Shown: positions 7,176-23,350, counted from the first letter of the stretch. The stretch: 64,000 nucleotides of DNA from Christensenellaceae bacterium (GCA_045596285.1 JAZOCA010000025.1:30613-94612), one strand, 5' to 3'. The notes: generated from the sequence alone by a model not told the origin. Numbers and translations are program-made.

Positions 7176-7841
7176 TTACTTTACAATCTCAATATATATT
7201 TCTAACTCAATTGACTTATATTTGATATAATTTTGTTTTTCTACGTAATACTCACTATCGATTCTTATTATTACAGCATAAAAACCAACCGCAACAACCC
7301 CTCCAAAATATTCACTGATATCTGAAAGCCCATCTATTTCATATTTAGAAAAAAATATCTTCTCCCCTTCATATTCACAATATAAAGGCTTAACAAAATG
7401 GAGTTCTTCGTCATATTTGTATACGTAAGTAACGTTATCTTTATATTCAATCGCCCCATTTGGGTCTAATACCAAGGTGGGGGTTTTTCTTTCATCAACA
7501 AATTTTATGGTAACTTCTTGATCTATAACTTTAGCGCTTGTTTCAAAACTAACGTGCGCGGGATAACGAAAAACGTTTTCCCTTTGAACTTCTTCATTTT
7601 TTATTTCGTTAACAATTACCTTATAAAACCCCTTTGGCCGGCAAGGAATTTGAACGAAATTTTCTTCATCTTGGGCTATTTCGATCGTTTTATCAAAAAC
7701 AACGCTTTCATCTTCTTCCCAAATAACAGTAATTTGCGCGCTGTATTTATTAAATATTTCTAAAAACTCACAACCACTTAATAAAGAAACGTTTAAAACG
7801 CCTATTAATAATAAGCATAGTACTCGTTTGCAAATTTTCAT
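7176..7841 (-). CDS. Hypothetical lipoprotein, tandem paralog A
   Basis: 221 aa with lipobox LLSGC. It shares ITVIWEEDESV.FDKTIEIAQD...CRPKGFYKVIVNEIKNEEVQRENVFRYPA with 6457..7125. Confidence 0.7.
   Translation of the reverse strand: MKICKRVLCLLLIGVLNVSLLSGCEFLEIFNKYSAQITVIWEEDESVVFDKTIEIAQDEENFVQIPCRPKGFYKVIVNEIKNEEVQRENVFRYPAHVSFETSAKVIDQEVTIKFVDERKTPTLVLDPNGAIEYKDNVTYVYKYDEELHFVKPLYCEYEGEKIFFSKYEIDGLSDISEYFGGVVAVGFYAVIIRIDSEYYVEKQNYIKYKSIELEIYIEIVK
7561..7735. repeat. 175-bp near-identical segment (copy 2)
   Basis: See 6845..7019. Confidence 0.85.
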
Positions 7842-9814: not shown

Positions 9815-10138
9815 AGTCCTACACCGCCTATCGCTTCAATTAATACCGTTCATTAACTAACAACAGGGCTTTACCTTCCCCACCACCATAAGTTAACTAC
9901 CAACAGGCTCTTTACCTTCCCCACCACCGTGAGTTAACTACCAACAGTCGCTTTGCATTTTCCACCGCCGTGAGCCAACTACCAACAGTCGCTTTATCTT
10001 CCCCACCGCCGTGAGCCAACTACCAACAGGCGCTTTACCTTCTCCACCACCGTGAGCCAACAACCAACAGTCACTTTACCTTCCCCACCACCGTGAGTTA
10101 ACTACCAACACTCGCTTTGCATTTTCCACCGCCGTGCA
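9815..10138 (+). repeat. Noncoding tandem array 1: a 38-bp head plus 7 units of a 41-bp repeat
   Basis: The head is AGTCCTACACCGCCTATCGCTTCAATTAATACCGTTCA. The units (9853-10138) have the consensus TTAACTACCAACAGTCGCTTTACCTTCCCCACCACCGTGAG. The period is not a multiple of 3, no spacers separate the units, and no long ORF spans the array. Confidence 0.9.
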
Positions 10139-10151
10139 ATACGAATTCTTT

Positions 10152-10176
10152 AAAACTACGCCTATAGGTCGATTAT
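10152..10176 (+). repeat. Family A motif, copy c
   Basis: AAAACTACGCCTATAGGTCGATTAT. Confidence 0.65.
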
Positions 10177-10191
10177 CTAACTTTCTATAAA

Positions 10192-10216
10192 TAAAAAAGG
10201 CGCGGAAACCGCGCCC
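10192..10216 (-). terminator. Rho-independent terminator ending the island operon
   Basis: The minus strand reads GGCGCGG-TTT-CCGCGCC followed by TTTTTT, 9 nt after the stop at 10225. Confidence 0.8.
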
Positions 10217-10224
10217 TAAAAATA

Positions 10225-11256
10225 TTATCTTCTACTGCTAACCGTTTGTGAATTTTGATTGTCTTCTTTTTGATCATTATTAGCACTTACTTCGTTTTGA
10301 ATGCTCTGAGAAGAACCCTTTTTATCTTCTATCGACCAAGTATTATTGATTGAATTAACTTGCTTTTTTACTGCCTCTTCTTTAAGTTCTGTATAGTTCT
10401 TTTTGCTTTCATCTGCTTTGTTATTTTCTAATTTGGCTTTTTCATATTGAGCATTTGATATATCTTTGATTTCAGATGAAAACACCTTTGCCCCCTCTGA
10501 CCAAGATTGAGTTTCCCCGTTGTTTCTTATTAAATTCATATTTTGTTTAGCGTAATTATAAGTATCTTGCGACCCTAAAGAAAAAGCCAACGTTTTTGCA
10601 AAAGAATTACTTTCTTTGTTTAACCCATCACGATATTCTTTTAAAAGAACTTTACCAGACTCTACATCTATGTTATACCTCGTTGCGATAGCCTCTGCAA
10701 ACTCGTCTAAGACCTGCCCATTAGAATGATGTACTAAACTATTTTTGTTCAAAAAGAAACTATCCATCCTGTTTTGTCTTTCTTGATAGTTTTCAGCAAG
10801 TTTTGCTTTTAATAATGAATATATTTTTTTATCTTCATGCGATAAATCTTTCATTTTTTCTATCTCCGCCTTTTTCTCTTTTGATAAATCTTGATATTTT
10901 TCTTTTAAGTTAATTTCAACTCTATTTTTAGCTGAATTAGTGCCTGAAAGAAAAACGCTTTTTGTTCTTGTATTAAAAGCACTTTGAAGCGAATATTTCC
11001 AGTTGTTTAAATGTGTTTGTTTATGTTCTTCTCTTGTTAAAAATTGAATATTATTGACTTCGCATGCAAGTTCCGGATGTTTGCTAACACTTTGAATATG
11101 ATGCCCAATAAAACCCTTAACTCTCCCGGTAGTCAATAACTCGTGTTGCTGATAAAGGTCCCACTCGCGACTACCTTTTCCTTGCTTTACAAGTCGAATT
11201 TCTTCCGCCCAGGCATCACGAACTCCTTTTGCCCTTAAATACTTTAAACTTGACAT
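10225..11256 (-). CDS. Putative HNH/EndoVII-fold nuclease toxin of the xHH (GHH/AHH/LHH) clade, with the toxin domain N-terminal and a long low-complexity/coiled-coil tail
   Basis: GFIGHHIQSVSKHPELACEVNNIQFLTREEHKQTH fits the [GAL]HH...N-I...L...H...H pattern of Aravind-type polymorphic-toxin nucleases, recalled from memory. The gene sits next to a SUKH/SMI1 gene. I chose the start at MSSLKY (11256). The track start at 11283 has no SD and would overlap the upstream gene. No signal peptide, LXG, WXG or RHS module is visible. Confidence 0.5.
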   Translation of the reverse strand: MSSLKYLRAKGVRDAWAEEIRLVKQGKGSREWDLYQQHELLTTGRVKGFIGHHIQSVSKHPELACEVNNIQFLTREEHKQTHLNNWKYSLQSAFNTRTKSVFLSGTNSAKNRVEINLKEKYQDLSKEKKAEIEKMKDLSHEDKKIYSLLKAKLAENYQERQNRMDSFFLNKNSLVHHSNGQVLDEFAEAIATRYNIDVESGKVLLKEYRDGLNKESNSFAKTLAFSLGSQDTYNYAKQNMNLIRNNGETQSWSEGAKVFSSEIKDISNAQYEKAKLENNKADESKKNYTELKEEAVKKQVNSINNTWSIEDKKGSSQSIQNEVSANNDQKEDNQNSQTVSSRR

Positions 11257-11264
11257 AATTATAC

Positions 11265-11702
11265 CTACCCAAGCTGTTCCCATTCGTTAATTTCGTCTTG
11301 AATAAAGCACTTAAAATCATTCCAGTCTTGATAAAATTCCTTATTTTCCTTATCCCACAAGAATATTTTTTGGGGACGCACCAAGTTTACACATAGCCAA
11401 TCGCCGTAATTTGTTTCACCTATTATAAGAAAATTGTTAAGCAATCCACTCTCTTTGCGAAAATTCCCCTTGTTTTCTTGTAATAAATCGTGATATGAGT
11501 TTTTACCCACACCGTAAATCACGCTACCGGGAATAAACAATTCGCCACCGTTAAAATGTTTTAACAGTTCAAGATAATTAGGCGGAAATTCAACACCAAG
11601 TTCGTTTTGTGCATTACTAATATCTTCTTCCGTTGCCGGTGGATATAAAACAACTACCGCACTGCTATAACGTGTAAGTTTGTTAATAAGTTCTTTCATC
11701 AC
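11265..11702 (-). CDS. SMI1/KNR4 (SUKH-1) family immunity-type protein
   Basis: 145 aa. The pattern ATEEDISNAQNELGVEFPPNYLELLKHFNGGELF...IIGETNYGDWLCVNL...IFLWDKE matches the SUKH-1 family. Confidence 0.8.
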   Translation of the reverse strand: MMKELINKLTRYSSAVVVLYPPATEEDISNAQNELGVEFPPNYLELLKHFNGGELFIPGSVIYGVGKNSYHDLLQENKGNFRKESGLLNNFLIIGETNYGDWLCVNLVRPQKIFLWDKENKEFYQDWNDFKCFIQDEINEWEQLG

Positions 11703-11730
11703 ACACCCTCAAGTTTAACTTTTAATTAGA

Positions 11731-14700
11731 CTACTCTAATTCAATAATTCCATCTGAACAAACAATTTCTTCAATACCCCATAAATAAATGTTATCAATT
11801 GTAACCACGTATTCTCCCATCGATCCCAAATCGACAGTAATTGAGAAATTATTTATAAGATCCCATTGTTCCATTGTACCCAAGTAGATAATGCTTGAAA
11901 CATTCTCGATGTATTCAAAATTAGAAGAGCCTATATAAGTTATAGAATTAGGCAACGTTACGCTTATTAATTTATTACAGTCTTCAAACGCCCCGGTACC
12001 TATCACTTTGCAATTTTCATCAACAACCGCCGTAAAAAGGTCTTTATCCACACTTGCCAAATAAAGATGTGGATTAAATTCATTACCTAAATATTTCAAT
12101 CCATCCCATTCATTATAAACAAGATTGTTGCAATATTCAAACGCACGTGAACCGATAAACATTATACTTTCTGGGATACTTACACTTACCAAATTATTAC
12201 AGCCATAAAACGCGTAATCATCTATTATTGTTACGCCCTCTGGAATACTTACACTTGCTAAGTTACCACAATTCCTAAACGCACTGTTTCCTATTGCAAT
12301 TACGCCTTCGGGAATACTTACACTTGCTAAGTTATCACAGTCATAAAACGCGTAATCACCTATTATAGTTACTCCTTCGGGGATAATAAAAGAACTATCT
12401 GTTTTGCCACCGGCATACCTAACCAAGGTCTTACCATCCTTAGAGTATAAATTTCCATCTATAGATTTATAATTAGGATTGTTTTCCGCAACTTCTATAT
12501 AATATAGATCATCCCAACTATCAACTGAATCAATCACTTCCACCGTTGAAGGAATAACTAACCAATCTAAATCCTCTGCCATATACAAATCTGGTATTCT
12601 TTTTGCTTTTGTTAACTCCAAATAAATTATGTTACAATAATACCAATCTCCATCTACAAATGAAAATAAATAGCGAAAATCGCAAGTTTCATCATCGTCT
12701 ACTGTTTTACCTATAAAAGGCGTAACGAGCGAACTCAAGTTCCAACAATCAGCAAAAATACCCCTACCGATACTTTCTACAGAAGATGGAATCGAAATAC
12801 CCTTTATACCCGACCCAACAAAAGCATAATCGCAAATAGTTTGCAACCCTTCAGGCAGGTCAAGTTCAACAATATTACTTCTATATGCAAAAGCGTAACT
12901 TTCTATTTGTTTTATCGTATTAGGAAATTGAAGTTGTAATTGTACGTTATAAGAATTAGTTGTGAACGCATATTCTTTAATATTTTCAGTACCTTCAAGT
13001 ATTTCATAATAATCTAAAAATTTAAATGGTGGAAAGCATATTAAATCCTTGCCGTCTTTACTGTATAAAACCCCGTCTACAGCCTTATAATTTTCATTAT
13101 ATGGTGAAACGAAAATATTTGAAACGCAACTATCAAAGAATACTTCAGCCGAAACGTCTTTAACAGTTGATGAAAGATTAACCACTTCAATCCGACGTTC
13201 GGACGTAAAGAGATAATCGCAAAGCGTTTCAACCCCTTCGGGAACTGTAAATTCGTTGTATTCCGCCCATTCATCTTGGGATATTGCAAGCAATGTTTTA
13301 CCGTCTTTACTATATAAATCACCATTTACAGATTTGTAATTTTGATTGTTAGAATCCACTCTTATTTCTGGTATCGAACAAGAATAAAAAGCCCCCGATA
13401 GTATTTTATTGACGTTTGCAGGTATAAATATCTCACCGTAATAGTCCATAACGGCAAGCGACAATATGCCAACGGTATCATATCTTAAATCTATGTAATT
13501 TAAATTTGAGTTTACTCTATAAAGCCAGTTATTGACGTAATAAGCGCCGTTATATTCCGTGATTAATCTTTCACAGTTTTCAAAAATCCCATAGCCTACT
13601 TCTTCTAAAGAATCTGGTATGTTAATTTCTGAAAGGTGAGAACAATTTACAAATGCGGAATCACCTATTTTTATTATACCTTCGTTAAGAGATAGCTTTG
13701 ATAACTTATTATTACCGTAAAACGATAGCGCTTCATCGGCAATTTCAATTGCATCTGTTATCGTTAGAGTCTTTAGGTTTTCATAATCATCTATTAAAGT
13801 CATTAATTTCAAATTCTCTTGCCGATTAAAACCTATAAAAGGAATCTCTAAGTTTTCTAAAAGAGGACAATTGTAGATGAAAGAATCCCCTATCTTTTGA
13901 ACGCTTTTGGGTATCACAACAGATTTTAAACTGGGGCAATTATAAAAAACATATGATTCAACTTCTAAAAGTCCATCTAAAAAAGTTACGTTTTGAATAC
14001 TTTCGCATCCATAAAAAGAATCTTCTTCAAGTCGTGTTTCATTAGTTACAACCACGTCCTTTAATGAATATGGAACGCCATAACTAAATATGCTATTAAA
14101 TCGACTAGAGCCATCTTCTCCATCTGCAATTTCTTGTTTCGTTCCAACGAAAGGAAGGGTTATTTTACATAAAGAAGTACACTCTTCAAACACTCCACTT
14201 TGTATTTCTGTAACGCTGTTAGGAATAATGATTTCGTTTAATGAAGTACAACCTTTAAATGCGCGGTAACGAATTTTTAATACACTATTTGGCAATTTTA
14301 TAAAATTAACATTTTCACAACCACTAAACGCCTCGATTGAAATTTCTGCGCCATCTAATATATCTATTTCCCTTAAGGATGCTGGGATATTTTCTTCTCC
14401 GCCAAAAATATAATTAAAAGATTGTTCTTTTATCCTTATTTGCATATCGTTCCAATTATAAAGATCATCATAGTTCACGTCATAATCTTCACTTCTTTGC
14501 TTCCCTACAAACGGTATGGTAATTTTTGTTAGAGATTCGCATTCCTGAAAAGCATATTCATTAATTACCCTAACTGAAGTAGGGATATAGATTTCAAGCA
14601 AATCACAACCCGAAAAAGTTCCACTTGCAATAGAAATAACTTTTGTTCCTTCTATTTCAGAAGGAATTTCTAAACTTGTGCTTATAGAATTATCATATGA

Positions 14701-15042
14701 GATCGCTTCATACCCCTTTAAACTTCTATTATACGAGTAAGTAACGCCATCTATTGTTTTATCCCATTTTACAGTAAAAACAACTATGGGCAAAATAACC
14801 CCTATAATTACAACAACTGCAACGATGGGAATTAAGTGTGCACGAATATAGTTTGCTGTTTTATTTAACCTATATTTTAAGGAGTTTCCTGCTTTACTGC
14901 ATAAGAAAGCAATTTTTGAAAAAATAATCTTCAAAAAATTTCCAAAACTTGCATTTTGAGAGTTATAATACTCCTCGTCACTTTGCTCTATATCTTCTAT
15001 TTCTTCTTCGTTAAATCTACCGTAACCCTTTGGTATTTTCAT
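11731..15042 (-). CDS. Giant BspA-type leucine-rich-repeat (LRR_5/TpLRR) protein, type II membrane topology
   Basis: 1103 aa. One strongly hydrophobic segment (LIPIVAVVVIIGVILPIVVFTV, about aa 70-92) follows an acidic N-terminus. Dozens of units fit the pattern IP.SV..IG..AF..C..L, with recurrent N.NYKS.DG.LYSKDGKTL modules. The SD sequence GGAGG lies inside the end of the upstream gene. Confidence 0.85.
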   Translation of the reverse strand: MKIPKGYGRFNEEEIEDIEQSDEEYYNSQNASFGNFLKIIFSKIAFLCSKAGNSLKYRLNKTANYIRAHLIPIVAVVVIIGVILPIVVFTVKWDKTIDGVTYSYNRSLKGYEAISYDNSISTSLEIPSEIEGTKVISIASGTFSGCDLLEIYIPTSVRVINEYAFQECESLTKITIPFVGKQRSEDYDVNYDDLYNWNDMQIRIKEQSFNYIFGGEENIPASLREIDILDGAEISIEAFSGCENVNFIKLPNSVLKIRYRAFKGCTSLNEIIIPNSVTEIQSGVFEECTSLCKITLPFVGTKQEIADGEDGSSRFNSIFSYGVPYSLKDVVVTNETRLEEDSFYGCESIQNVTFLDGLLEVESYVFYNCPSLKSVVIPKSVQKIGDSFIYNCPLLENLEIPFIGFNRQENLKLMTLIDDYENLKTLTITDAIEIADEALSFYGNNKLSKLSLNEGIIKIGDSAFVNCSHLSEINIPDSLEEVGYGIFENCERLITEYNGAYYVNNWLYRVNSNLNYIDLRYDTVGILSLAVMDYYGEIFIPANVNKILSGAFYSCSIPEIRVDSNNQNYKSVNGDLYSKDGKTLLAISQDEWAEYNEFTVPEGVETLCDYLFTSERRIEVVNLSSTVKDVSAEVFFDSCVSNIFVSPYNENYKAVDGVLYSKDGKDLICFPPFKFLDYYEILEGTENIKEYAFTTNSYNVQLQLQFPNTIKQIESYAFAYRSNIVELDLPEGLQTICDYAFVGSGIKGISIPSSVESIGRGIFADCWNLSSLVTPFIGKTVDDDETCDFRYLFSFVDGDWYYCNIIYLELTKAKRIPDLYMAEDLDWLVIPSTVEVIDSVDSWDDLYYIEVAENNPNYKSIDGNLYSKDGKTLVRYAGGKTDSSFIIPEGVTIIGDYAFYDCDNLASVSIPEGVIAIGNSAFRNCGNLASVSIPEGVTIIDDYAFYGCNNLVSVSIPESIMFIGSRAFEYCNNLVYNEWDGLKYLGNEFNPHLYLASVDKDLFTAVVDENCKVIGTGAFEDCNKLISVTLPNSITYIGSSNFEYIENVSSIIYLGTMEQWDLINNFSITVDLGSMGEYVVTIDNIYLWGIEEIVCSDGIIELE
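12172..12378. repeat. Three tandem 69-bp (23-aa LRR) units with high DNA identity inside the 1103-aa gene
   Basis: The protein repeat is SVSIPEGV.IIGDYAFY.C.NLA, three times. The DNA units were aligned by eye. Confidence 0.75.
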
Positions 15043-15046
15043 GATT

Positions 15047-18000
15047 TCATTCCTCCGTAACAGAAATATTTATAACTCCATCGGAACATATGAGCTTTTT
15101 TTCCTTAGCATTTTTACCAAAACAATATCGTTTTTTAATTGCATTCCACTGCCGTTTTGTTCCCTCATACGTAATACTCGATAAATTATCACAATAAAAA
15201 GCATTTACAGATTCAATAGAAACAACGCTTTTCGGGATAGTTATTTCTTTTAAACTATTACACTCACAAAAAGCTTGCGATTCAATGGTTGTAACGTTTT
15301 TGGGAATAATTATCTCTGATAACTTTTTGCAATACCAAAAGGCAAAAGAAGGGATAACCGTTAAATTTTCTGGTAGCGTTACACTTGTTAAATTATCGCA
15401 ATAAGCAAAAACACTACGCCCTATTATCGTTACACTATTTGGTATATTAATACTTGTTAAATTTTTACACTCTTCAAAAGCATATTCTTCAATCGTAGTT
15501 ACGCTATTTGGTATTACAATATCTTTTAGGGTACGGTTTCTGTAAAAAGCACTTTCGCCTATAACATTGACGTGATTTGGTATAGTAAAAGAACTCTCTT
15601 TCTTTCCAGGCGCATAACAAATTAAGGTTTTTCCATCTTTACTATACAAATTTCCGTCTATCGCCTTAAAATTAAGATTATCTGTACTTACTTTTATCTC
15701 TTGCAGTGAGCTACAATAAAAAGCATTTGTAGATTCAATAGAAACAACGCTTTTCGGGATAGTTATTTCTTTTAAACTATTACATTTATAAAAAGCTTGC
15801 AATTCAATGGTTGTAACGTTGTTGGGAATAATTACCTCTGATAAATTTTCGCAATGCCCAAAGGCAAAAGAAGGGATAACCGTTAAATTTTCTGGTAGCG
15901 TTACGCTTGTTAAATTATCGCAATAAGCAAAAACTCTATACCCTATTGTCGTTACACTATTTGGTATATTAATACTTGTTAAATTTTTACAATTTGCAAA
16001 AGCATCTTCTTCAATCGTAGTTACGCTATTTGGTATTACAATATCTTTTAGCGCGCGATTATCACAAAACGCGTGTGAACCTATAGTATTTACGTGATTA
16101 GGTATAACAAAAACAGCATCTTTTTTTCCAGGAGCATAGCGAACTAATACTTTTCCATCTTTACTATATAAGTTGCCATCTATAGACGTATAATTAGGAT
16201 TGTGTTTGTTTACGTTTATATTCTCAAGTTCTATACAACCATTAAAAGCTTTTTCGTGTATAACTTTTATACTTTCTTCTATATTTACCTCGCTAACAGA
16301 ATCACAAAGAGCACCGGCCCTCCTCCATCCCCCTGCTCTCTTATTATTATAATCAGTAATATACCAAAAAGCTAATCTATCAAGTTTATCTCCGTTATTA
16401 ACAGTTATTTTTTTAACGTTAAATTTTGTTAAAGATTGTATAGCACCCACAGGGCATTCAACCTGGTTAACATTGTAACACCCATAGAATATATCTTTGC
16501 CAATATTCTTAATTTTACATTGTATACTTATATTTTGAAGAGCGGCGCAACCGTAAAAAGCATAGTCGCCAATAAATTTTATATTTTCGGGAATTACAAT
16601 ACTCGTAAGCGACTTACAATTTAAAAAGGCGAAACTATCGATGCGAGATATATTGTTAGGAATCACAACGTTTGTAAGCGTTTCTCGATTAGTTGAAAGG
16701 TAGCTGTAAAAATCATCTTCTTTACTTTTTTTGTGTTTTGTTTTTTTATAAAACACTCTTTTTTTACCAATATCTTCTATTCCACGTATTTTTTTCCAGC
16801 TCTTTCGTGTACCATAATAAACCACGTGAACAACCTTAGAACACCCTTTAAATGCACCTCTCCAAATATAATTAAGCTCATTATACACCGTTATATGGCT
16901 AAGAGCTTTACAACCATCAAAGGCAAATAAGCCAATCTCTTTTAAACTTGTGGGAAAAACAACTTTTTTTAATGAATAACAATTCTTAAAAGCCTCGTCG
17001 CCTATTTTGTTTAAATTATTCGGCATTTTTATATCTTCTAATGAATTACATCTTTCAAATAACCCTCTTTCGATTTCGTTTAATTTATCGGGTAACGCTA
17101 TACATTTTAAACGAGTGCAGTTATAAAAAGCTCCCCTTTTTATTGAATTAACACTATTTGGGAGCACAACGTGTTCTAACTGTTTACAATTACTAAATGC
17201 AAAAATATCGATTTCGGTAACGCTATTAGGTATTATTATACATTTTAGGTTGCAATAAGAAAAAGCATGTGGCCCTATCGTTTTAGTTCCATCTGGCACG
17301 ATAAAAGTTTCTTCCGACTTACCGTTTGCATATTGAATTAACGTTTTACCGTCTTTAGAATATAAATCTCCATCAATAGATTTGTAATTTGAATTACCTG
17401 ATTCCACCTTTATTTCCACCAACTGATTACAACCCATAAAAGCATAATAACCTATTGTTTTAACGTTGTTGGGAATAATCACACTGTTGATTTCATTATG
17501 ATATATTAGGGCTTCGTTAGCAATAATTTTACAATTATCATTTATTTGTACATAGTCAATTTTCTCTGTTCCTTTAATCAAACATAAATATGGGTTTTCA
17601 TCATTACCTAAATATTTTAATCCGTTAAGTTCATTATAGGAAAGATTATTGCATTCATTGAAAGATAATGCCCCTATTGATTCTATACCGTTAGGCATTG
17701 TTATTTTTTTTAGTCCAAAACATTTCTCGAAGGCTCTTTTTCCTATATATTGTATATCTTCAGGTATATCAATAGCGGTTAAATTCACACATCCACTAAA
17801 CGCTCTTTCTTCTATTTCCTCTAAATTTTTAGGAAGTGTTACGCTTAATAAATTCACACATCCTCTAAACGCTCTTTCTCCTATTATCTTTAAATTTTTA
17901 GGAAAAGTTACGCTTAATAAATTCACACATCCACCAAACGCGCTTTCTCCTATTCCCTCTAAATTTTTAGGAAGAGTTACGCTTAATAAATTATCATAAT

Positions 18001-18589
18001 CAGCAAAAACAATTTCATTTATGTAATCCACTGGATATCCATAAATATCATCTTTTATGATAATTTCGGTTGAGTTGCCTCTATACTCGCTCACGAAGAA
18101 AGAGTTTGTTTCCTCATCATAAACATATTCAATACCATCTTCTTCATACACTAACGACGAATTTATAAGAATAGCTCCATCACAACAGAAAACCCAATCA
18201 CACACAAGGCTCTCGTCTTTATTGATTTGAGCCCACTGATCCTTTGTTCCACCAAAGGTTATATTTACTATTGTTTTACACCTACTAAAAGCTCCGTTAA
18301 CAATCAAACCTACACTTTTCGGTATAATCATATTTCTAACTAAATTACAGTTTGTAAACATATCCTCTGTAATAACGGCTACACCTTCTAAAACAGTTAT
18401 ACTTTCAAAAGATGAATAATTATTATAATCTGAACTGTTAGGTATAGTTTCACCATATATTACTAGCCCATTCTTGGCGTTGTTTTTTGTAAAAACGTAA
18501 TCATTACTAGCATTTTCTTCCGTTTTGTTGCAGTTGTTTATATCAAATTCTTCTCCAATAGCTCGGCTATACTCTTTTGGGATCTTCAT
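15047..18589 (-). CDS. Giant BspA-type LRR_5 protein with no recognisable signal peptide or TM segment
   Basis: 1180 aa with the same LRR_5 unit pattern. The first 60 residues are hydrophilic (MKIPKEYSRAIGEEFDINNCNKTEENASNDY...). It shares the MKIPK.Y.R opening with the downstream paralog. The SD is AAGGAGAA. Confidence 0.85.
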   Translation of the reverse strand: MKIPKEYSRAIGEEFDINNCNKTEENASNDYVFTKNNAKNGLVIYGETIPNSSDYNNYSSFESITVLEGVAVITEDMFTNCNLVRNMIIPKSVGLIVNGAFSRCKTIVNITFGGTKDQWAQINKDESLVCDWVFCCDGAILINSSLVYEEDGIEYVYDEETNSFFVSEYRGNSTEIIIKDDIYGYPVDYINEIVFADYDNLLSVTLPKNLEGIGESAFGGCVNLLSVTFPKNLKIIGERAFRGCVNLLSVTLPKNLEEIEERAFSGCVNLTAIDIPEDIQYIGKRAFEKCFGLKKITMPNGIESIGALSFNECNNLSYNELNGLKYLGNDENPYLCLIKGTEKIDYVQINDNCKIIANEALIYHNEINSVIIPNNVKTIGYYAFMGCNQLVEIKVESGNSNYKSIDGDLYSKDGKTLIQYANGKSEETFIVPDGTKTIGPHAFSYCNLKCIIIPNSVTEIDIFAFSNCKQLEHVVLPNSVNSIKRGAFYNCTRLKCIALPDKLNEIERGLFERCNSLEDIKMPNNLNKIGDEAFKNCYSLKKVVFPTSLKEIGLFAFDGCKALSHITVYNELNYIWRGAFKGCSKVVHVVYYGTRKSWKKIRGIEDIGKKRVFYKKTKHKKSKEDDFYSYLSTNRETLTNVVIPNNISRIDSFAFLNCKSLTSIVIPENIKFIGDYAFYGCAALQNISIQCKIKNIGKDIFYGCYNVNQVECPVGAIQSLTKFNVKKITVNNGDKLDRLAFWYITDYNNKRAGGWRRAGALCDSVSEVNIEESIKVIHEKAFNGCIELENINVNKHNPNYTSIDGNLYSKDGKVLVRYAPGKKDAVFVIPNHVNTIGSHAFCDNRALKDIVIPNSVTTIEEDAFANCKNLTSINIPNSVTTIGYRVFAYCDNLTSVTLPENLTVIPSFAFGHCENLSEVIIPNNVTTIELQAFYKCNSLKEITIPKSVVSIESTNAFYCSSLQEIKVSTDNLNFKAIDGNLYSKDGKTLICYAPGKKESSFTIPNHVNVIGESAFYRNRTLKDIVIPNSVTTIEEYAFEECKNLTSINIPNSVTIIGRSVFAYCDNLTSVTLPENLTVIPSFAFWYCKKLSEIIIPKNVTTIESQAFCECNSLKEITIPKSVVSIESVNAFYCDNLSSITYEGTKRQWNAIKKRYCFGKNAKEKKLICSDGVINISVTEE
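15185..16212. repeat. In-frame tandem duplication, 2 x 522 bp (174 aa), inside the 1180-aa LRR gene
   Basis: ACAATAAAAAGCATTT... recurs at 15191 and 15713 (offset 522). The two copies are roughly 90% identical by eye over about 500 bp. Confidence 0.85.
17781..17987. repeat. Three tandem 69-bp LRR-unit repeats inside the 1180-aa gene
   Basis: The protein repeat is LLSVTLPKNLE.IGE.AF.GCVN, three times. The shadow plus-strand ORF 17649..17999 shows the same threefold periodicity. Confidence 0.8.
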
Positions 18590-18615
18590 GGTTCTCCTTT
18601 CCTGTGTGAAATAGA

Positions 18616-20076
18616 TTAGATTTCTTTTTTAAATGGGTCTACCTTTAAAAAGAATGGATTGCTTTGCTCTTTTGCTCCGTATTTTCTGGCAAGGCGAACA
18701 ATACATTCGCCAACGTCTAAATTTAAAATATCCCAGTCTTCAACAACGTTTGCTTTTTCTACGCTTTCTATAACTCCACGGCTAGAAATTGCCGAAAGAT
18801 ACGCTATTCTCTTCTTGTTTTGCCCAAGAGTGTCAACGATATATTTTCTTGTTTCATAATCGGCAACGCGATATGCAATTATAGAGGAAAAACCACTTAA
18901 AATATTTTTTGCGTTATCTTCACCGTAATTGTTAATAATTTGAGAGATGTTCTGAACGCCTATAATAAATTTAACGCCTATGCTTCTACCAAAATTAACT
19001 GCGTCGTCTATGTGATTTAAATTAGGAAGAAGTTTAAACTCATCAACTATAAAATACGCATTTCCTTTTTTACCGTGGCGACTTTCTAAAGATTCTTTAA
19101 TTGCTAAATCCACAAGTAAAGAATAAATGGGAGTTAAAACACTACCTTCCGTTATATCGTACTGAATATATATTTTTTTACCACCGCGTTCGCGAACTGC
19201 TTCACGTATAGAAAAACTACCTTCTTTTGCAAAATTACCAATAAAAATTTCATCTATTACCATTTGCAATTCTGCAATTATACCTTGCGTTTGTCCGTTA
19301 TTTTCTACTTTATCACCCGCAGTTAAATAGCTTAAAGCTCCTCTTTCTCTTTTTGAAAGCAAATATGCTAAAACATCTAAAACGTTATTAGACCTAACGC
19401 ACTCTAATCCAATATTTTCACCGTTAAATAAGGCTTTTAAAAGTTTGTTAGATAATGGCATGTCTAAAGCCATTTCACAACGTTTTAATTCACGCAAAAT
19501 GGCAGCAAAAATAGCTTTTGCCGCTTGCGGGAAGAATGGATTAGAAGATTTTTTTATTGCATCAGCAAAAATCATTCCGGCAATTTCATTAGAACTTTCG
19601 GTTAATTTATCTTCATCTAATTCTTTAAAGATATTCCATATTTCTTCTTTTGAAGAAACCTTTTCGTGCCCTTTAGCGTCTTTTAGGGGCGCGTTAGATA
19701 AAAAGATATCCTTTCTATTTTCATGACTTCCAAAAGTATTATAAAAATCACCCTTTGTGTCAAAAATAACCATTACGTCTTTTTCCGTACACTTATCAAT
19801 AAGTTGGTCGGTCATAGATAAAAAGGTATTAGTTTTTCCCATACCTATACCACCAACTATTAAAAAATGCTTACTTAAAACGTCACTATCAATTTGAACT
19901 TTTATATCTTTAAAACCCTTATCTATACCGTTAAATTCTTCTTCAGGCTCAGGTTTTACGTTCGTTTTTCCGCTTAAAACAATCTGTGGATCGCTTGCTG
20001 AATTACCGTCATAAAATTTATCATACTCTGGGCCCGTATAAACAGTTTCTATTTTGAAATCCTTTCTGTTTTGCAT
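18616..20076 (-). CDS. Soluble P-loop ATPase of the TraG/TraD/VirD4 (type IV coupling protein, T4CP) family, lacking the usual N-terminal membrane anchor
   Basis: 486 aa with Walker A GGIGMGKTN and Walker B YFIVDEF. The downstream block GRSIGVKFIIGVQNISQIINNYGEDNAKNI...DYETRKYIVDTLG aligns by eye with the TrwB/VirD4 block (GR..G....G.Q..SQL...YG...A......D..T......LG). I see no hydrophobic segment. Confidence 0.7.
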   Translation of the reverse strand: MQNRKDFKIETVYTGPEYDKFYDGNSASDPQIVLSGKTNVKPEPEEEFNGIDKGFKDIKVQIDSDVLSKHFLIVGGIGMGKTNTFLSMTDQLIDKCTEKDVMVIFDTKGDFYNTFGSHENRKDIFLSNAPLKDAKGHEKVSSKEEIWNIFKELDEDKLTESSNEIAGMIFADAIKKSSNPFFPQAAKAIFAAILRELKRCEMALDMPLSNKLLKALFNGENIGLECVRSNNVLDVLAYLLSKRERGALSYLTAGDKVENNGQTQGIIAELQMVIDEIFIGNFAKEGSFSIREAVRERGGKKIYIQYDITEGSVLTPIYSLLVDLAIKESLESRHGKKGNAYFIVDEFKLLPNLNHIDDAVNFGRSIGVKFIIGVQNISQIINNYGEDNAKNILSGFSSIIAYRVADYETRKYIVDTLGQNKKRIAYLSAISSRGVIESVEKANVVEDWDILNLDVGECIVRLARKYGAKEQSNPFFLKVDPFKKEI

Positions 20077-20090
20077 AATATCTCCTCTTC

Positions 20091-20753
20091 TTAAGCGTAA
20101 TCGCCACGTTCTTGTAAGGTTGCAATTCTTCCGTTAATTACTTCAACAAATTCATAAAAGTTTTTTTCAATAGGAATTGCATTGTAAATAATAGTAGTGC
20201 CGTTTGAAACTAAAGTCGTTCTGCGAATATGCCCGGCAGTTCCACCCATAATCGTTATATTTCCTATGGTAATTTTGTAATTTCTTGCACGATACTTAAA
20301 CGCCCTATAAATCAAATATGCCCCAAGAGCCCCAAAGAGAGCTAAAGTTAAAAAACCCCATCCCCAAATTCCTTCAACTGTAAATATAAACACACTTAAT
20401 ATCAAAGAAAATAATGAAACAATTATCCCCCAAATAAAGGCTAAATAGTTAAACGGTTTATCGTAACTTGCGCAAACGGTTCCTATATTTCTAATACTTG
20501 TACTAGCAAAAGAATAGTGGCTACCTCTATGATTTTTAGATTCTGGGTAATCTACCATAAAATATAATCGTTGTGCAGAAAGAACGAAGTATCCAACGCT
20601 TATACCTCCTTCAAACCAATCCGAAGCACCCACAAAACACTTATACACGTTTTTAGTTTCTTCATCTGGAGCTGCGTCTTCATGCCCGTAAATTCTTTTG
20701 TTGAGCCGTTGAATGACTCGCATCTGCTCTTCGGATATCTTTTTTTCAGCCAT
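20091..20753 (-). CDS. Hypothetical membrane protein with a central 2-TM hairpin; first gene of the island operon
   Basis: I set the start at MAEKKISEEQ (20753), which has AAAGGAGAAAAAAT upstream. The two hydrophobic helices are YLAFIWGIIVSLFSLILSVFIFTV and WGFLTLALFGALGAYLIYRAF. Soluble domains of about 95 aa (N-terminal) and about 70 aa (C-terminal) flank them. The stop is 14 nt before the ATPase start. Confidence 0.65.
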   Translation of the reverse strand: MAEKKISEEQMRVIQRLNKRIYGHEDAAPDEETKNVYKCFVGASDWFEGGISVGYFVLSAQRLYFMVDYPESKNHRGSHYSFASTSIRNIGTVCASYDKPFNYLAFIWGIIVSLFSLILSVFIFTVEGIWGWGFLTLALFGALGAYLIYRAFKYRARNYKITIGNITIMGGTAGHIRRTTLVSNGTTIIYNAIPIEKNFYEFVEVINGRIATLQERGDYA

Positions 20754-20793
20754 ATTTTTTCTCCTTTTTATAAAATAAAATTGTCGCAATATG

Positions 20794-20822
20794 ATTTTAT
20801 CATAATAATTAATCAAAATCAA
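20794..20822 (-). promoter_or_regulatory. Candidate sigma-A promoter of the island operon
   Basis: The minus strand reads TTGATT-17 nt-TAAAAT with an upstream TG (extended -10), about 40 nt before the ATG at 20753. Confidence 0.45.
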
Positions 20823-20921
20823 CATAATTTTACGTAGCCAAGTAAAAATAAACTTAAATAAATAAGTATAAATTAAACTACTATTAGTTAATTACCTTAT
20901 TTTTACCGATCGATATTCCTG

Positions 20922-20947
20922 GAAAAGCCTGCTATAGCACGATTAAT
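20922..20947 (+). repeat. Family A motif, copy d
   Basis: GAAAAGCCTGCTATAGCACGATTAAT. Confidence 0.65.
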
Positions 20948-20998
20948 AAACTTTTTAAGATGTGCGCAATGATAAAAAACTTCTATAATATTTATCTA

Positions 20999-21239
20999 GT
21001 CCTACACCGCCTATCGTGCCGTTAATACCGTTCATTAACTACCAACAGTCGCTTTACCTTCCCCACCACCGTGAGTTAACTACCAACAGTCGCTTTACCT
21101 TCCCCACCGCCATGAGTTAACTACCAACAGTCGCTTTACCTTCTCCACCTCCGTAAGCCAACTACCAACAGTCGCTTTAGCTTCCCCACCTCCGTGAGCC
21201 AACTACCAACAGTCGCTTTATCTTCTCCACCACCGTGAG
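20999..21239 (+). repeat. Noncoding tandem array 2: a 36-bp head plus 5 units of the same 41-bp repeat
   Basis: The head is AGTCCTACACCGCCTATCGTGCCGTTAATACCGTTCA. The units lie at 21035-21239, in the same orientation and with the same consensus as the array at 9815-10138. Confidence 0.9.
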
Positions 21240-21274
21240 TGAAAAAGTAAAATTAAAAAAATGCTTAAAATAAA

Positions 21275-21303
21275 TTGACAAAGCTATAATGCAGTAATAT
21301 AAT
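21275..21303 (+). promoter_or_regulatory. Sigma-A promoter for the THI-box leader and thiT
   Basis: Perfect TTGACA-17 nt-TATAAT. Confidence 0.7.
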
Positions 21304-21317
21304 AATAGCATCAGACA

Positions 21318-21440
21318 ATAAACGGGGTGCTGTGTATTTGCAAACGTTCAAGACCGGTATTGAACGGCGAAAACACGGCTGAGATTATACCCATAATCGG
21401 GCGCGGTAATTCACGGCCGAGAAACAGTATTTTTCTTACG
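21318..21440 (+). promoter_or_regulatory. TPP (THI-box) riboswitch-like leader with an atypical 3' half
   Basis: ACGGGGUGC...(long P3 insert UGUGU...ACACG)...GCUGAGAUUAUACCC matches the GGGGUGC / GCUGAGA / ACCC core of the pyrimidine-sensing half. It lies directly upstream of a ThiT-type gene. The following CGGGCGCGGUAAUUCACGGCCGAGAAAC keeps a hairpin with a UAAU loop but not the conserved CCUGAUCUGG...CCAGCGUAGGGA sequence as I recall it. Confidence 0.55.
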
Positions 21441-21469
21441 CCCCTGAAATTTTTAGGAGGTGTTTTTTT

Positions 21470-22147
21470 ATGTCTGAACTGTTGTTTTTTAACTCTTTAG
21501 TGGAAGAAAGTTTTACCGATTACGTAACTATTTGTTCCACAATTCTAATCGTGTTGCTAATTGTTGCAATAGGCGTAATGATTGCAAAAAAGAAACTCGC
21601 AACCCAAGATATTGCCTATGCAGGCGTTGCGATATCGCTTTCTTTCGTGCTTTCGTTTATCAAATTTACACCCGTTCAATACGGTGGATCGATAACGCTT
21701 GCATCACTTGCCCCTCTGCTTATTTACGCTTACTATTTTGGCTTTGCAAAAGCGCTTGTTTGCGGTTTTATTTACGGCATTTTGCAGTTCTTGCAAGATC
21801 CATACATCCTTACACCCGCAACTTTTACGTTAGACTTTTTGCTTGCCTTTGCGTCTGTTAGCGTTATGGGGCTGTTTTCAAAAGCAAAATTAAACGTCGC
21901 AACGCTTACACTTGGCACAACGGCATCTATTGCAACAAGATTTTTTATGCACTTTATTTCTGGTATTTTATACTTTAATCACGGAAGCATCTGGGTAAAC
22001 CTACCCGCCGAAAGCGCGGTTTCATACTCATTGCTTTATCAAACGGTATATCTTGTGCCAGACTTTATAATTTGCCTTGCTGTTATGCTTATTCTTTACA
22101 AAACACGCGTTATAGAAAGAATTAAGCCAAAAAGCCTTCAAAAATAG
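21470..22147 (+). CDS. thiT: Thiamine ECF transporter S component (ThiT/YuaJ family)
   Basis: 225 aa with about 6 TM segments. GGSITLASLAPLLIYAYYFG...GFIYGILQFLQDPYILTP resembles ThiT. A THI-box-like leader lies upstream, and the ecfAA'T module is in the same window. Confidence 0.7.
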   Translation: MSELLFFNSLVEESFTDYVTICSTILIVLLIVAIGVMIAKKKLATQDIAYAGVAISLSFVLSFIKFTPVQYGGSITLASLAPLLIYAYYFGFAKALVCGFIYGILQFLQDPYILTPATFTLDFLLAFASVSVMGLFSKAKLNVATLTLGTTASIATRFFMHFISGILYFNHGSIWVNLPAESAVSYSLLYQTVYLVPDFIICLAVMLILYKTRVIERIKPKSLQK

Positions 22148-22351: not shown

Positions 22352-23350
22352 CTAATTAGCGTTTGACTTTACGTAATTTTTTAACGCATCAACCTTTTGA
22401 TTGCATTCGGCTTCATCGCCTTTATGAATATACAGTAATAGGTTGATTTCTATTTTCCTGCCGTAATATTCTATCGTATGCCACGACGTAGCGCCATACA
22501 ATTTAACTAATTCAACTTCGCCTGTTTTAAGATTATAATAAGCTTCTTGAGTTATAGAACAATCTGAATTCGAAATCGACGCATATAATAATGAAAAATC
22601 TTTATTTACTCCCGATGGAATATTAAAGAAAGGTGCGGTCTGCTTAAACACAATATAATTTTCGTATAGTTTGTATTCTCTGGTCACAAATTCATTAATA
22701 TCATACGTTTTATCGTTAAGTTCATACGGTTCGTAATTTTTAAAGAAAGTTGATTGTGAAATAAGATTTCTTAAATAAACCGCTCTTACTTGCATTTCGC
22801 ATAATTCAGTTCCGTTAGTGGGAAATATCGGGTACTCTTTTGAACTGTATCTTACAACCCCATTAGCACCGGATTCAGAGCCGTTAAACGCTTTTTCGTC
22901 CTTATAGGTATATTTATTAAAAGAACTCATTTCAAAACTATTATCTTCTAATTTTTTTGAATAATTATACTCTTCAACTACTAAAACGGCGTCATCACCT
23001 TCTTTTTTGGCTCTGAATTCATATAATTCAGCGCTATCAAGATAATAAGCATTCATATTTACATAGGACTTACTTTCGTCGCCTAATTTCGTTTCAGCTA
23101 CACACGAAAGTTTTTTCCCAACCTTATAATTTACAAACCCTATTTTATCAAATATTTCATAAAAGTCTGCCGTTTTATCACAGGTAATTTCTTCCCCTTC
23201 GCTAGTTTCAATAACCACCGAATCGACTTCCTTGCCCAAAACGATTTCTTTAGCTTTTACAATATCAAATTCATCTTGACCGCCTTTATTACAAGAAGCC
23301 ATTGACAAAAGCAATATAAACGCCAAGAAAACAACTATAAACTTCTTCAT
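22352..23350 (-). CDS. Hypothetical lipoprotein
   Basis: 332 aa with signal peptide and lipobox LLLSMASC. I recognise no catalytic motif. Confidence 0.6.
   Translation of the reverse strand: MKKFIVVFLAFILLLSMASCNKGGQDEFDIVKAKEIVLGKEVDSVVIETSEGEEITCDKTADFYEIFDKIGFVNYKVGKKLSCVAETKLGDESKSYVNMNAYYLDSAELYEFRAKKEGDDAVLVVEEYNYSKKLEDNSFEMSSFNKYTYKDEKAFNGSESGANGVVRYSSKEYPIFPTNGTELCEMQVRAVYLRNLISQSTFFKNYEPYELNDKTYDINEFVTREYKLYENYIVFKQTAPFFNIPSGVNKDFSLLYASISNSDCSITQEAYYNLKTGEVELVKLYGATSWHTIEYYGRKIEINLLLYIHKGDEAECNQKVDALKNYVKSNAN

Follow-up and report, generated by a model that had tools for sequence, protein, structure and literature searches.

A soluble coupling-protein-type ATPase encoded with a nuclease-immunity pair and leucine-rich repeat giants: a candidate toxin-delivery module without a type IV secretion system

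What does an ATPase folded like a type IV coupling protein (T4CP) do in an operon that carries no secretion system? The question is raised by an island at about positions 9815-21239 of a 64,000-nt stretch of DNA from a Christensenellaceae bacterium (GCA_045596285.1 JAZOCA010000025.1:30613-94612), which was analyzed over its whole length and is called the window here. A first, sequence-only reading of this DNA had described six minus-strand genes in one operon with gaps of 4-28 nt and had proposed ATPase-driven export or toxin delivery as their function. Calling of open reading frames (ORFs) in the window returned the same six tightly packed minus-strand genes, running from 20753 down to 10225 and separated, in transcription order, by 14, 26, 4, 28 and 8 nt, and the domains assigned in that reading agree with Pfam. 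Comparative genomics supports the proposed function. Judged from sequence comparison, the operon is probably, by a small measure, a stand-alone module in which a T4CP homologue would drive the export or delivery of a toxin without a type IV secretion system (T4SS). In order of transcription, the operon consists of:

20091-20753, minus strand: membrane protein with two transmembrane (TM) segments, the 2-TM or GRAM-TM protein, 220 aa (ORF call, family alignment)
18616-20076, minus strand: soluble T4CP-like ATPase, 486 aa (Pfam, AlphaFold2 model)
15047-18589, minus strand: leucine-rich repeat (LRR) protein of the LRR_5 type, 1180 aa, without hydrophobic segment (Pfam, hydrophobicity scan)
11731-15042, minus strand: type II-anchored LRR_5 protein, 1103 aa (Pfam, TM segment at about residues 70-92)
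11265-11702, minus strand: SUKH (SMI1/KNR4) immunity protein, 145 aa (Pfam)
10225-11256, minus strand: protein with a Tox-GHH nuclease head, 343 aa (Pfam)

The ATPase is a soluble homologue of the coupling proteins, with the TrwB/VirD4 fold, and stands without a secretion system. It scores above the curated Pfam cut-offs for TrwB_AAD_bind (E 2e-43; 149 bits, cut-off 20.5), T4SS-DNA_transf (E 1e-20; 74 bits, cut-off 20.1) and TraG-D_C (E 9e-17), consists of a single domain according to Pfam and contains the Walker A motif GGIGMGKTN and the Walker B motif FIVDEF. Both these Pfam families and the fold are those of T4SS coupling proteins such as TrwB of R388, VirD4 and Cag-beta. The AlphaFold2 model of the ATPase (predicted local distance difference test, pLDDT, 81; predicted template modelling score 0.83) found TrwB(deltaN70) as its best fold match in the PDB, at E 3e-19 and a TM-score of 0.70-0.73 over 430-478 alignment columns, followed by Cag-beta and then HerA. 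TrwB was the best PDB match by sequence too. No hydrophobic segment that would correspond to the N-terminal TM anchor of true T4CPs was present in the window ATPase or in its relatives of ~430 aa. In one relative, protein P0009 of locus L004, an anchor stands at the C-terminus of the ATPase instead, through fusion to a TM-LRR segment.

Relatives of the ATPase are numerous. More than 2,358 were retrieved at E<=1e-5 (clusters at 90% identity), most of which measure ~430 aa and share 41-48% identity with the window protein. All NCBIfam equivalog cut-offs for conjugation proteins were missed widely by the window ATPase, the best score being that for TraD_Ftype (86.6 bits vs. 521); the CD1115-type VirD4 equivalog gave 78.6 bits against a cut-off of 250. 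On the six proteins and their flanks, Pfam detected no relaxase, no integrase or excisionase, no VirB4 and no mating-pair (VirB6-, VirB8- or VirB1-like) gene, in line with the earlier statement that the block holds no conjugation or mobility gene. ATPase homologues also occur outside conjugative elements: the Pfam-annotated neighbourhoods of nine relatives contained no VirB4, relaxase or mating-pair gene, and no relaxase, VirB4 or mating-pair family was among the 25 most frequent of 201 families on 105 flanking proteins of the wider family described below.

Two other associations of the ATPase were considered and rejected. A phage association of the family was discarded, as a viral collection of 2.9 million contigs held only one relative. 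A plasmid or conjugative association of the close relatives was discarded as well. The best plasmid matches carry T4SS-protein annotation; the closest of them reach 33% identity and lie on non-mobilizable megaplasmids, where a Paenibacillus ATPase has the membrane partner directly upstream. This Paenibacillus protein is labeled in RefSeq as 'type IV secretion system DNA-binding domain-containing protein' and sits among hypothetical proteins. The record, Paenibacillus amylolyticus pY5S7-1 (locus L176, 289614-291843), is a 375-kb non-mobilizable megaplasmid that encodes a GRAM-TM protein with a C-terminal Zn-ribbon together with the soluble T4CP-like ATPase. All neighbours are annotated as hypothetical, and as a cultured Bacillus-class carrier the strain is a possible experimental entry point.

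The 220-aa membrane partner is encoded immediately ahead of the ATPase. Word-indexed homologue searches with this protein returned only 4, then 18 relatives, and owing to these small numbers its AlphaFold2 model is of low confidence (pLDDT 63), with weak Foldseek matches (E ~0.01) that are nearly all to PH domains. A family alignment links the protein to 270-430-aa proteins encoded upstream of the ATPase in the wider family. Members of this alignment show an optional Zn-ribbon, a beta-rich '…G.L.VTNKRVIF…' region, 2-4 TM helices and a C-terminal helix with the motif I..IQ..GD.[AG]I.KW, whose counterpart in the window protein is a conserved C-terminal helix ending ..LQERGDYA. Pfam GRAM (PF02893) is precomputed on relatives of the partner. 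Taken together, the alignment, the GRAM annotation of relatives and the PH fold matches lead to a partner that appears to have a cytoplasmic GRAM/PH-like domain interrupted by a TM hairpin, an assignment resting mainly on the relatives' precomputed Pfam annotation and on the alignment. A homologue of this partner lies upstream of the ATPase gene and on the same strand in 51 of the 57 loci whose upstream DNA extends over at least 4 kb.

The last two genes of the operon encode an immunity protein and a predicted toxin. The SUKH protein matches Pfam SUKH_5, SMI1_KNR4 and SUKH_6 at E-values from 1e-16 to 1e-19, and its gene stands directly upstream of the GHH gene, 8 nt apart. The same pair was found in three other loci (L177, L093 and L094), and the SUKH protein at the matching position in L177 is 31% identical to that of the window. 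Tox-GHH (HNH/EndoVII) was recognized by Pfam at E 4.9e-17 on residues 13-82 of a 352-aa ORF, and the start at 11256, which gives the 343-aa protein, is backed by the homologues P0141, P0144 and others. The catalytic motifs GHH and N..F.T..EH are intact in this nuclease head, which is followed by a long charged low-complexity tail ending ...QTVSSRR. We therefore refer to the 343-aa protein as the predicted toxin and predicted substrate of the module. In an exhaustive HMMER search with the GHH protein, the head occurred in two architectures, either at the C-terminus of large classical polymorphic toxins or N-terminally in proteins of 200-450 aa that have low-complexity tails. Tails of the second kind end in …TVRR, …SKKR, …NTRR, …GQGR, …SQGR, …GMGY or …GQSM. 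A SUKH gene stands immediately upstream in two cases of this second architecture. In locus L094 (1-5928), a SUKH gene and an N-terminal GHH gene with the tail …DDGMGY follow two other genes, one for a TM protein of 1067 aa and one for a partial protein of 302 aa.

A toxin domain from the shared pool, Tox-GHH, thus lies beside an immunity gene of the SUKH type, as in polymorphic toxin systems (Zhang et al. 2012, PMC3482391), with which the family also has varying heads at conserved loci in common. The layout differs from that of classical polymorphic toxins, in which an N-terminal trafficking region precedes a C-terminal toxin domain and the immunity gene lies downstream. Here the toxin head is N-terminal, the immunity gene comes first, the C-terminal tail is the conserved part and no catalogued trafficking domain was detected with Pfam. 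The terms 'TraG' and 'coupling' do not appear in the accessible part of the text of the 2012 survey of trafficking domains (PMC3482391).

Both giant proteins of the operon consist almost wholly of LRR_5 repeats (Pfam E 5e-117 for the 1103-aa and 1.5e-201 for the 1180-aa protein) and show partial NCBIfam matches to the adhesin HupY/LrrG. That neither carries an ordinary Sec signal, as the sequence-only reading had it, held in a Kyte-Doolittle scan, the one method applied: no N-terminal Sec-like segment was seen on either giant, one having an internal signal-anchor and the other no hydrophobic segment. A lipobox or LPXTG motif was likewise absent from both. The 1103-aa protein begins with an acidic cytoplasmic N-terminus of ~69 aa, starting with MKIPKGYGR, continues with one TM segment and ends in the extracellular LRR_5 region, while the 1180-aa protein has the N-terminal peptide MKIPKEYSR and no TM segment. 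The cytoplasmic peptide MK[IV]PKEY[GS]R opens the LRR proteins of the window (both), of L001 and of L091, with E replaced by G in the anchored window protein. The N-terminal and juxtamembrane motifs of the 1103-aa protein recur in L001, L091, L002, L177 and the P0009 fusion. Since P0009 joins ATPase, TM segment and LRR region in one chain, in a topology that is consistent with such a contact, we argue that the anchored LRR protein is more likely a structural partner than cargo. The giants have LRR_5 repeats in common with BspA-type adhesins (HupY/LrrG) and differ from them by the apparent lack of a cleavable signal, by the absence of lipobox and LPXTG, by their common cytoplasmic N-terminal peptide and by their operon and P0009 links to the ATPase.

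The 1180-aa LRR_5 gene also contains near-identical internal repeats, namely a 300-nt duplication with 93% identity (15191-15490 and 15713-16012) and three 69-bp units, each encoding a 23-residue LRR, with ~90% identity (17780-17992). This near-identity implies very recent repeat expansion in the gene.

The complete set of six genes was found again in L177, a metagenomic contig of another species, which encodes 2-TM protein, ATPase, soluble LRR, anchored LRR, SUKH and GHH proteins in the order of the window. Compared with the window, the L177 ATPase is 56% identical, the 2-TM protein 34%, SUKH 31% and the GHH head 55%. The soluble LRR paralogue of L177, at the position corresponding to the 1180-aa protein, is 291 aa long, the anchored LRR protein 589 aa, and the N-terminal GHH protein 337 aa with the end …QTQSR. 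As six gene types keep the same order in both species, the operon is a unit and not a chance neighbourhood. A core of 2-TM protein, ATPase, LRR_5 protein and a 344-446-aa tail protein is present in L001, L091, L002 and L004, each time among different housekeeping genes, so that the gene combination, whose absence elsewhere would have spoken against the sequence-only reading, recurs in full once and as a core in four further loci. The ATPases of these loci are 74% (L091), 66% (L001), 54% (L002) and 51% (L004) identical to that of the window. In L004 the ATPase is fused via the TM segment to the LRR_5 domain, as described for P0009, and the gene after it codes for an AHH nuclease whose tail is similar.

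L002 and L177 come from two related organisms and carry the system at one and the same chromosomal site, but the genes that lie downstream of the ATPase differ. Their flanks are 84% identical (L177 2395-4195 and 5737-7967 align with L002 19-1820 and 4479-6707); the cargo consists of a tail protein and one LRR protein in L002, and of soluble LRR, anchored LRR, SUKH and GHH proteins in L177. Different cargo at one site is the pattern expected of a polymorphic cargo region, and together with the divergence of the variable proteins described below this swap represents the diversification known from polymorphic toxins. The tail proteins of the clade end in …SSRR (window), …NIKR (L001), …SNER (L091), …GQGR (L004), …QTQSR (L177) and …NNLTM (L002) and have a weakly conserved central region in common. 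Their homology is tentative, because pairwise BLAST matches are barely significant (2e-4 at best), and rests on gene position and a weak multiple alignment.

A scan of species-representative genomes yielded 80 loci of a wider family, whose ORFs were called and compared. The loci belong mostly to Clostridia (Oscillospiraceae, Lachnospiraceae, Ruminococcus), Tissierellia (Anaerococcus, Peptoniphilus) and Chloroflexota (Anaerolineae, Roseiflexus). Between the partner and ATPase genes they carry one small gene followed by one highly variable gene (160-1040 aa). The small genes include those for IFS (immunity factor for SPN NADase; 4 loci) and SUKH (2 loci), and the domains detected on variable proteins are Endonuclease_NS_2, ADP-ribosyl cyclase, DUF6782 and SprT peptidases, PD-(D/E)XK, GHH and AHH. 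Across 59 variable proteins the mean column identity is 7%. An N-terminal hydrophobic stretch is present in only 1 of the 59, the median net charge over the last 50 residues is -8, and NCBIfam returned low-complexity matches only.

The extreme C-terminus of the variable proteins most commonly reads E-D-Y-x-Y-G-Y-G-Y-COOH, other forms being GMGM, GI(S/D)R, GLDR and GIGY. The Tyr/Gly form was found in 24 of the 59 variable proteins compared with 8 of 1051 other ORFs, and all eight of these are second small cassette proteins in Anaerolineae loci. The motif class tracks the ATPase clade. Genes that follow the ATPase encode a single N-proximal TM segment in 37 of 55 proteins (150 of 898 background ORFs), often together with an N-terminal Zn-ribbon, and their ectodomains include SH3_3, YARHG, Amidase_3, LRR, C-type and ricin lectins, FGE-sulfatase and beta-propellers. 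Against this background the window represents a variant of the LRR_5 type, with the immunity-toxin pair placed downstream of the motor instead of upstream.

Two features of subsets of the family were recorded in addition. In the Chloroflexota/Anaerolineae loci L031, L036, L044, L046, L065, L071 and L077, inspected at gene position -2, two paralogous GRAM-TM genes are found; both small proteins encoded between the GRAM-TM genes and the ATPase gene end in …EEDY.YGYGM/Y, which points to a pair of co-exported substrates and not to a toxin with its immunity protein. In 10 loci of one clade an orthologous tyrosine recombinase (Phage_integrase) is encoded a few kb upstream of the GRAM-TM gene, mostly adjacent to it (L006 7008-8099, L010 4982-6076, L017 6437-7537, L020 3725-4822, L021 6186-7280, L027 6223-7212, L034 6549-7652, L045 6098-7051, L059 6703-7833 and L080 5405-6508). 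These loci contain no relaxase, and the window has no counterpart of the recombinase, which could mobilize the module or rearrange its toxin cassettes.

How might such a module work? Coupling proteins read C-terminal signals on their substrates, which are Arg-rich in VirB/D4 systems, Glu-rich in Dot/Icm and of the XVIPCD type in the bacteria-killing T4SS of Xanthomonas, and EccC of type VII secretion systems (T7SS) binds a C-terminal YxxxD/E tail. By analogy with TrwB, the ATPase would form a hexamer at the membrane, where it would dock both on the GRAM-TM protein and on the N-terminal cytoplasmic parts of the anchored proteins, which in the window means the peptide MKIPK(E/G)Y(G/S)R carried by the LRR_5 proteins; the second of these contacts is backed by the P0009 fusion. 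The hexamer would then recognize the C-terminal tail of the toxin, that is the acidic E-D-Y-x-Y-G-Y-G-Y end in the wider family and the charged tail ending in Arg in the window clade, and ATP hydrolysis would drive the toxin across the single membrane. Within the producer, SUKH would neutralize the GHH nuclease. The anchored LRR_5 protein, perhaps with its soluble paralogue, and the lectin, SH3 and amidase ectodomains of other loci may serve in wall passage, surface display or contact with the target cell.

We favour export of the toxin because the C-terminal motif is specific to the cassette and sits on signal-less toxin-like proteins, because immunity genes adjoin these proteins and because type II-anchored wall-binding proteins are encoded downstream. 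Several observations weigh against it. Secretion, toxicity and binding of the tail by the ATPase are all deduced from sequence, and no obvious channel-forming protein was identified, the partner in the window clade being only a 2-TM hairpin. The majority of the variable proteins have no Pfam match, and the correlation of motif class with ATPase clade could stem from shared ancestry alone. The window GHH tail (…SSRR) does not carry the Tyr/Gly motif, and the pattern of ending in Arg concerns six proteins, being seen in four of the five aligned (window, L001, L091, L002, L004) and in L177. The tail proteins of L001, L091 and L002 have no recognizable toxin head, and the AHH nuclease of L004 has no adjacent immunity gene. 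The 5.9-kb L094 contig has the SUKH-GHH pair with its GMGY tail but shows neither an ATPase nor a GRAM-TM gene, and the tail motif may therefore not be confined to the ATPase system; the pair is either an orphan cassette or the same toxin architecture used in another delivery context. Finally, T4CP-like domains also occur in anti-phage systems. Against PADLOC v2 the ATPase matched mad8 at 1e-17 over most of the profile and HerA at 1e-6 to 1e-7, and a T4SS-DNA_transf domain has been reported in Menshen NsnA (PMC12065111).

One alternative is a machine for surface assembly, in which ATPase and GRAM-TM protein would insert, translocate or display the large LRR_5 and lectin-type proteins, the signal-less 1180-aa protein among them, and the toxin pairs would be accessory or merely linked. 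Surface-type proteins, anchored or soluble, are indeed the most constant neighbours in the window clade, the N-terminal peptide that both window LRR_5 proteins have in common is a possible recognition tag, and the signal-less LRR paralogue is kept in L177. The ATPase is moreover fused to TM and LRR segments in P0009; yet this motor-LRR fusion argues that the LRR protein is a fixed component and not a substrate. Type II signal-anchor proteins normally insert via Sec/YidC without a dedicated ATPase. The cassette-specific C-terminal motif is carried by the toxin-like and not by the anchored proteins, and in many loci of the wider family the anchored genes downstream are short or missing. We consider surface assembly unlikely.

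An equally unlikely alternative assigns the operon to anti-phage defence or abortive infection, with an ATPase that would sense or pump invading DNA, may be gated by the membrane or surface proteins and would release a nuclease or NADase held back by its immunity protein. Nuclease and NAD-targeting effectors are typical of abortive infection, and some loci, such as L004, have no immunity gene beside the nuclease. The tyrosine recombinase next to the system in 10 loci suggests mobile behaviour like that of a defence island, and the mad8 and HerA matches as well as the T4SS-DNA_transf domain, reported as the sensor in Menshen NsnA (PMC12065111), point in the same direction. However, PADLOC is essentially silent on everything else: among the other operon proteins only SUKH gave a marginal partial match and the remaining four gave none, and 3 marginal matches were all that the 59 variable proteins returned. 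With the ATPases of MADS (mad8), Sir2-HerA and DUF4297-HerA the window protein has the P-loop superfamily in common and HerA as a secondary fold match, whereas the partner proteins of those systems are missing and its fold is nearer to TrwB than to HerA. Both SUKH and IFS are families of immunity proteins against secreted interbacterial toxins (Pfam descriptions; PMC3482391), and relatives in viral contigs are limited to the single one mentioned above. Defence would also leave the conserved C-terminal motif, the acidic tail and the extracellular wall-binding partners unexplained.

A device for handling DNA, with a motor that exports or imports DNA like coupling proteins or archaeal Ced and a nuclease that processes it, is very improbable. 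It would account for the fold of DNA-pumping ATPases such as TrwB and HerA, for weak NCBIfam matches of the ATPase to CedB and CedD and for the several linked enzymes that are nucleases, but NAD-targeting and peptidase domains are linked as well, along with the immunity families IFS and SUKH; a relaxase, a DNA-binding accessory protein or a competence gene is not linked, and the C-terminal protein motif points to protein substrates. A decayed integrative and conjugative element (ICE), or an adhesin island beside an unrelated toxin cassette, both raised by the sequence-only reading itself, would suit the T4CP-superfamily ATPase with its T4SS-annotated plasmid matches, the direct-repeat bracket and the somewhat lower GC content, but they are largely refuted by a gene order kept with intact ORFs across species at 34-56% protein identity and by the ATPase-GRAM-TM pairing in 51 of 57 loci, and the ICE remnant is effectively excluded by the widely missed equivalog cut-offs, the annotated neighbourhoods free of relaxase, VirB4 and mating-pair families, the single relative in viral contigs and the non-mobilizable megaplasmids that carry the closest plasmid relatives.

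Toxin export by a T4CP homologue can be set beside two described types of secretion. The family differs from T4SSs in having no linked VirB4, VirB6, VirB8, VirB1 or relaxase, in an ATPase without N-terminal TM segment, in its monoderm hosts and in its partner, a GRAM/PH-like TM protein. We know of no such partner in a T4SS. Toxin-like proteins of the window family nevertheless resemble substrates of the T4SS of Xanthomonas and Stenotrophomonas (X-T4SS) in having an N-terminal enzyme head and a conserved C-terminal tail, and the effectors of the X-T4SS are antibacterial toxins whose genes adjoin those for immunity proteins (PMC6536674, PMC6759196). In T7SSb, an ATPase of the FtsK/HerA superfamily exports signal-less polymorphic toxins with immunity genes in Bacillota and Chloroflexota (PMC3482391, PMC10765036). 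Signal-less polymorphic toxin-like proteins, immunity genes and a single membrane are found here as well, and the C-terminal Tyr/acidic end resembles YxxxD/E. The T7SSb reverse-domain substrate TslA demonstrates that an N-terminal toxin can be combined with a C-terminal targeting region (PMC10730906), and EsaC, with a bacterial PH-like fold, is listed among components of T7SS neighbourhoods (PMC3482391). Unlike T7SSb, the window family has a single-domain T4CP-type ATPase and not a multi-domain EssC/EccC with FHA, and neither WXG100 nor LXG, EssA, EssB or EsaA was found in the precomputed Pfam annotation of the neighbourhoods examined. By analogy, the system resembles a cross of T4CP-dependent effector recruitment, as in the X-T4SS, and T7SSb.

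Whether the whole family amounts to an unrecognized class of secretion system is, in our estimate, evenly balanced. Such a class would be at home in single-membrane bacteria (gut and rumen Clostridia, Tissierellia, Chloroflexota and some Bacilli) and would consist of a GRAM/PH-docked T4CP-type ATPase that exports tail-tagged polymorphic toxins, with a type II-anchored extracellular arm. The gene combination is not mentioned in the accessible parts of a 2025 review of T4SS nomenclature (PMC12857230) and of the 2012 survey's list of trafficking modes (PMC3482391), and a full-text literature search whose coverage left out most subscription-journal papers returned no description of it; the system appears to be undescribed. 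If the proposal is true, an additional widespread route of interbacterial toxin delivery exists in Gram-positive-type bacteria, many of its carriers being gut and rumen metagenome-assembled genomes. Coupling-protein ATPases would then be autonomous protein translocases and not only substrate receptors for T4SS channels, which bears on the long-standing question of T4CP mechanics, and a role would be found for part of the BspA-type LRR_5 giants that are abundant but unexplained in Clostridia. The pair of GRAM-TM protein and ~430-aa soluble T4CP, combined with the C-terminal tag, offers a signature with which hundreds of new toxin and immunity families could be mined. As cultured carriers exist, candidates being Anaerococcus tetradius ATCC 35098 (L011), Peptoniphilus catoniae (L054) and Paenibacillus amylolyticus Y5S-7 (L176), the idea is directly testable.

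The setting of the operon includes candidate expression signals and a repeat array on either side:

20794-20822, minus strand: candidate sigma-70-type promoter, TTGATT-17-TAAAAT with upstream TG, 9/12 consensus positions
10197-10217, minus strand: intrinsic terminator, 8 nt past the GHH stop codon, 9-bp stem and 3-nt loop
9815-10136, no strand assigned: left repeat block, a ~38-bp head (9815-9852) and 7 tandem 41-bp copies (9853-10136)
20998-21240, no strand assigned: right repeat block, the same head (~20998-21034) and 5 copies (21035-21240)

Of the expression signals and base composition described in the sequence-only reading, only part stood. The terminator (10217-10197) is strong as stated, with 7 GC pairs among the 9 of its stem and the 3-nt loop followed by the T-run TTTTATTTAT. 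The promoter at 20822-20794 is weak, since in a consensus scan such sites were no more numerous in the region than expected from shuffled sequence. Good Shine-Dalgarno sequences precede five of the six starts, that before the GHH start at 11256 being weak. The island is indeed the lowest-GC 11-kb stretch of the window, at a modest contrast of 32.7% against 37.2% in the rest, and the neighbouring ORFs 7176-7841 and 22352-23350 are equally low (31-33% GC). These two and a third ORF beside the island, 6457-7125, encode proteins of 221-332 aa without Pfam match, all at 31-33% GC. Housekeeping genes flank the island on one side (rpsI, rplM, truA, three ecf transporter genes, two unknown ORFs and spoIVA), with thiT and glycoside hydrolases on the other. 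In the metagenome collection no SpoIVA relative exceeds 47% identity, and thiT, the ATPase and the 2-TM gene are all missing within 10 kb of the nearest ones.

That the same head and 41-bp array bracket the island in the same orientation was corroborated by Tandem Repeats Finder (left array, period 41, 7.0 copies, 84% matches; right array, period 41, 5.0 copies, 90% matches) and by flank alignment, in which the homology sets in sharply at 9815 and ~20998. The arrays are non-coding. They are variable-number repeats, the minus strand of each unit being G-rich (GGTGGTGGGGAAGG), and the array on the thiT side has 5 copies in the window and 8 in L089 (8714-9041), a strain 98% identical to the window. 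No copy of the unit lies elsewhere in the 64-kb window, where 0 chance matches are expected, and an exact-pattern scan of JGI metagenomes gave 0 matches; among the fetched loci it was found only in the same species (L089 and L090). Folding of the array strand gave no significant secondary structure (z = -1.1). At gathering thresholds Rfam had no match in the whole window. At E<=1 it returned nothing but marginal matches on the terminator in the left array region and none on the thiT leader, so that arrays and leader fit no curated RNA family. The leader (21300-21470) may be a divergent or atypical thiamine leader: it contains the elements GGGGUGC…CUGAGA…ACCC, which resemble a thiamine pyrophosphate (TPP) riboswitch, and a perfect promoter, TTGACA-17-TATAAT, lies upstream of them at 21275-21303.

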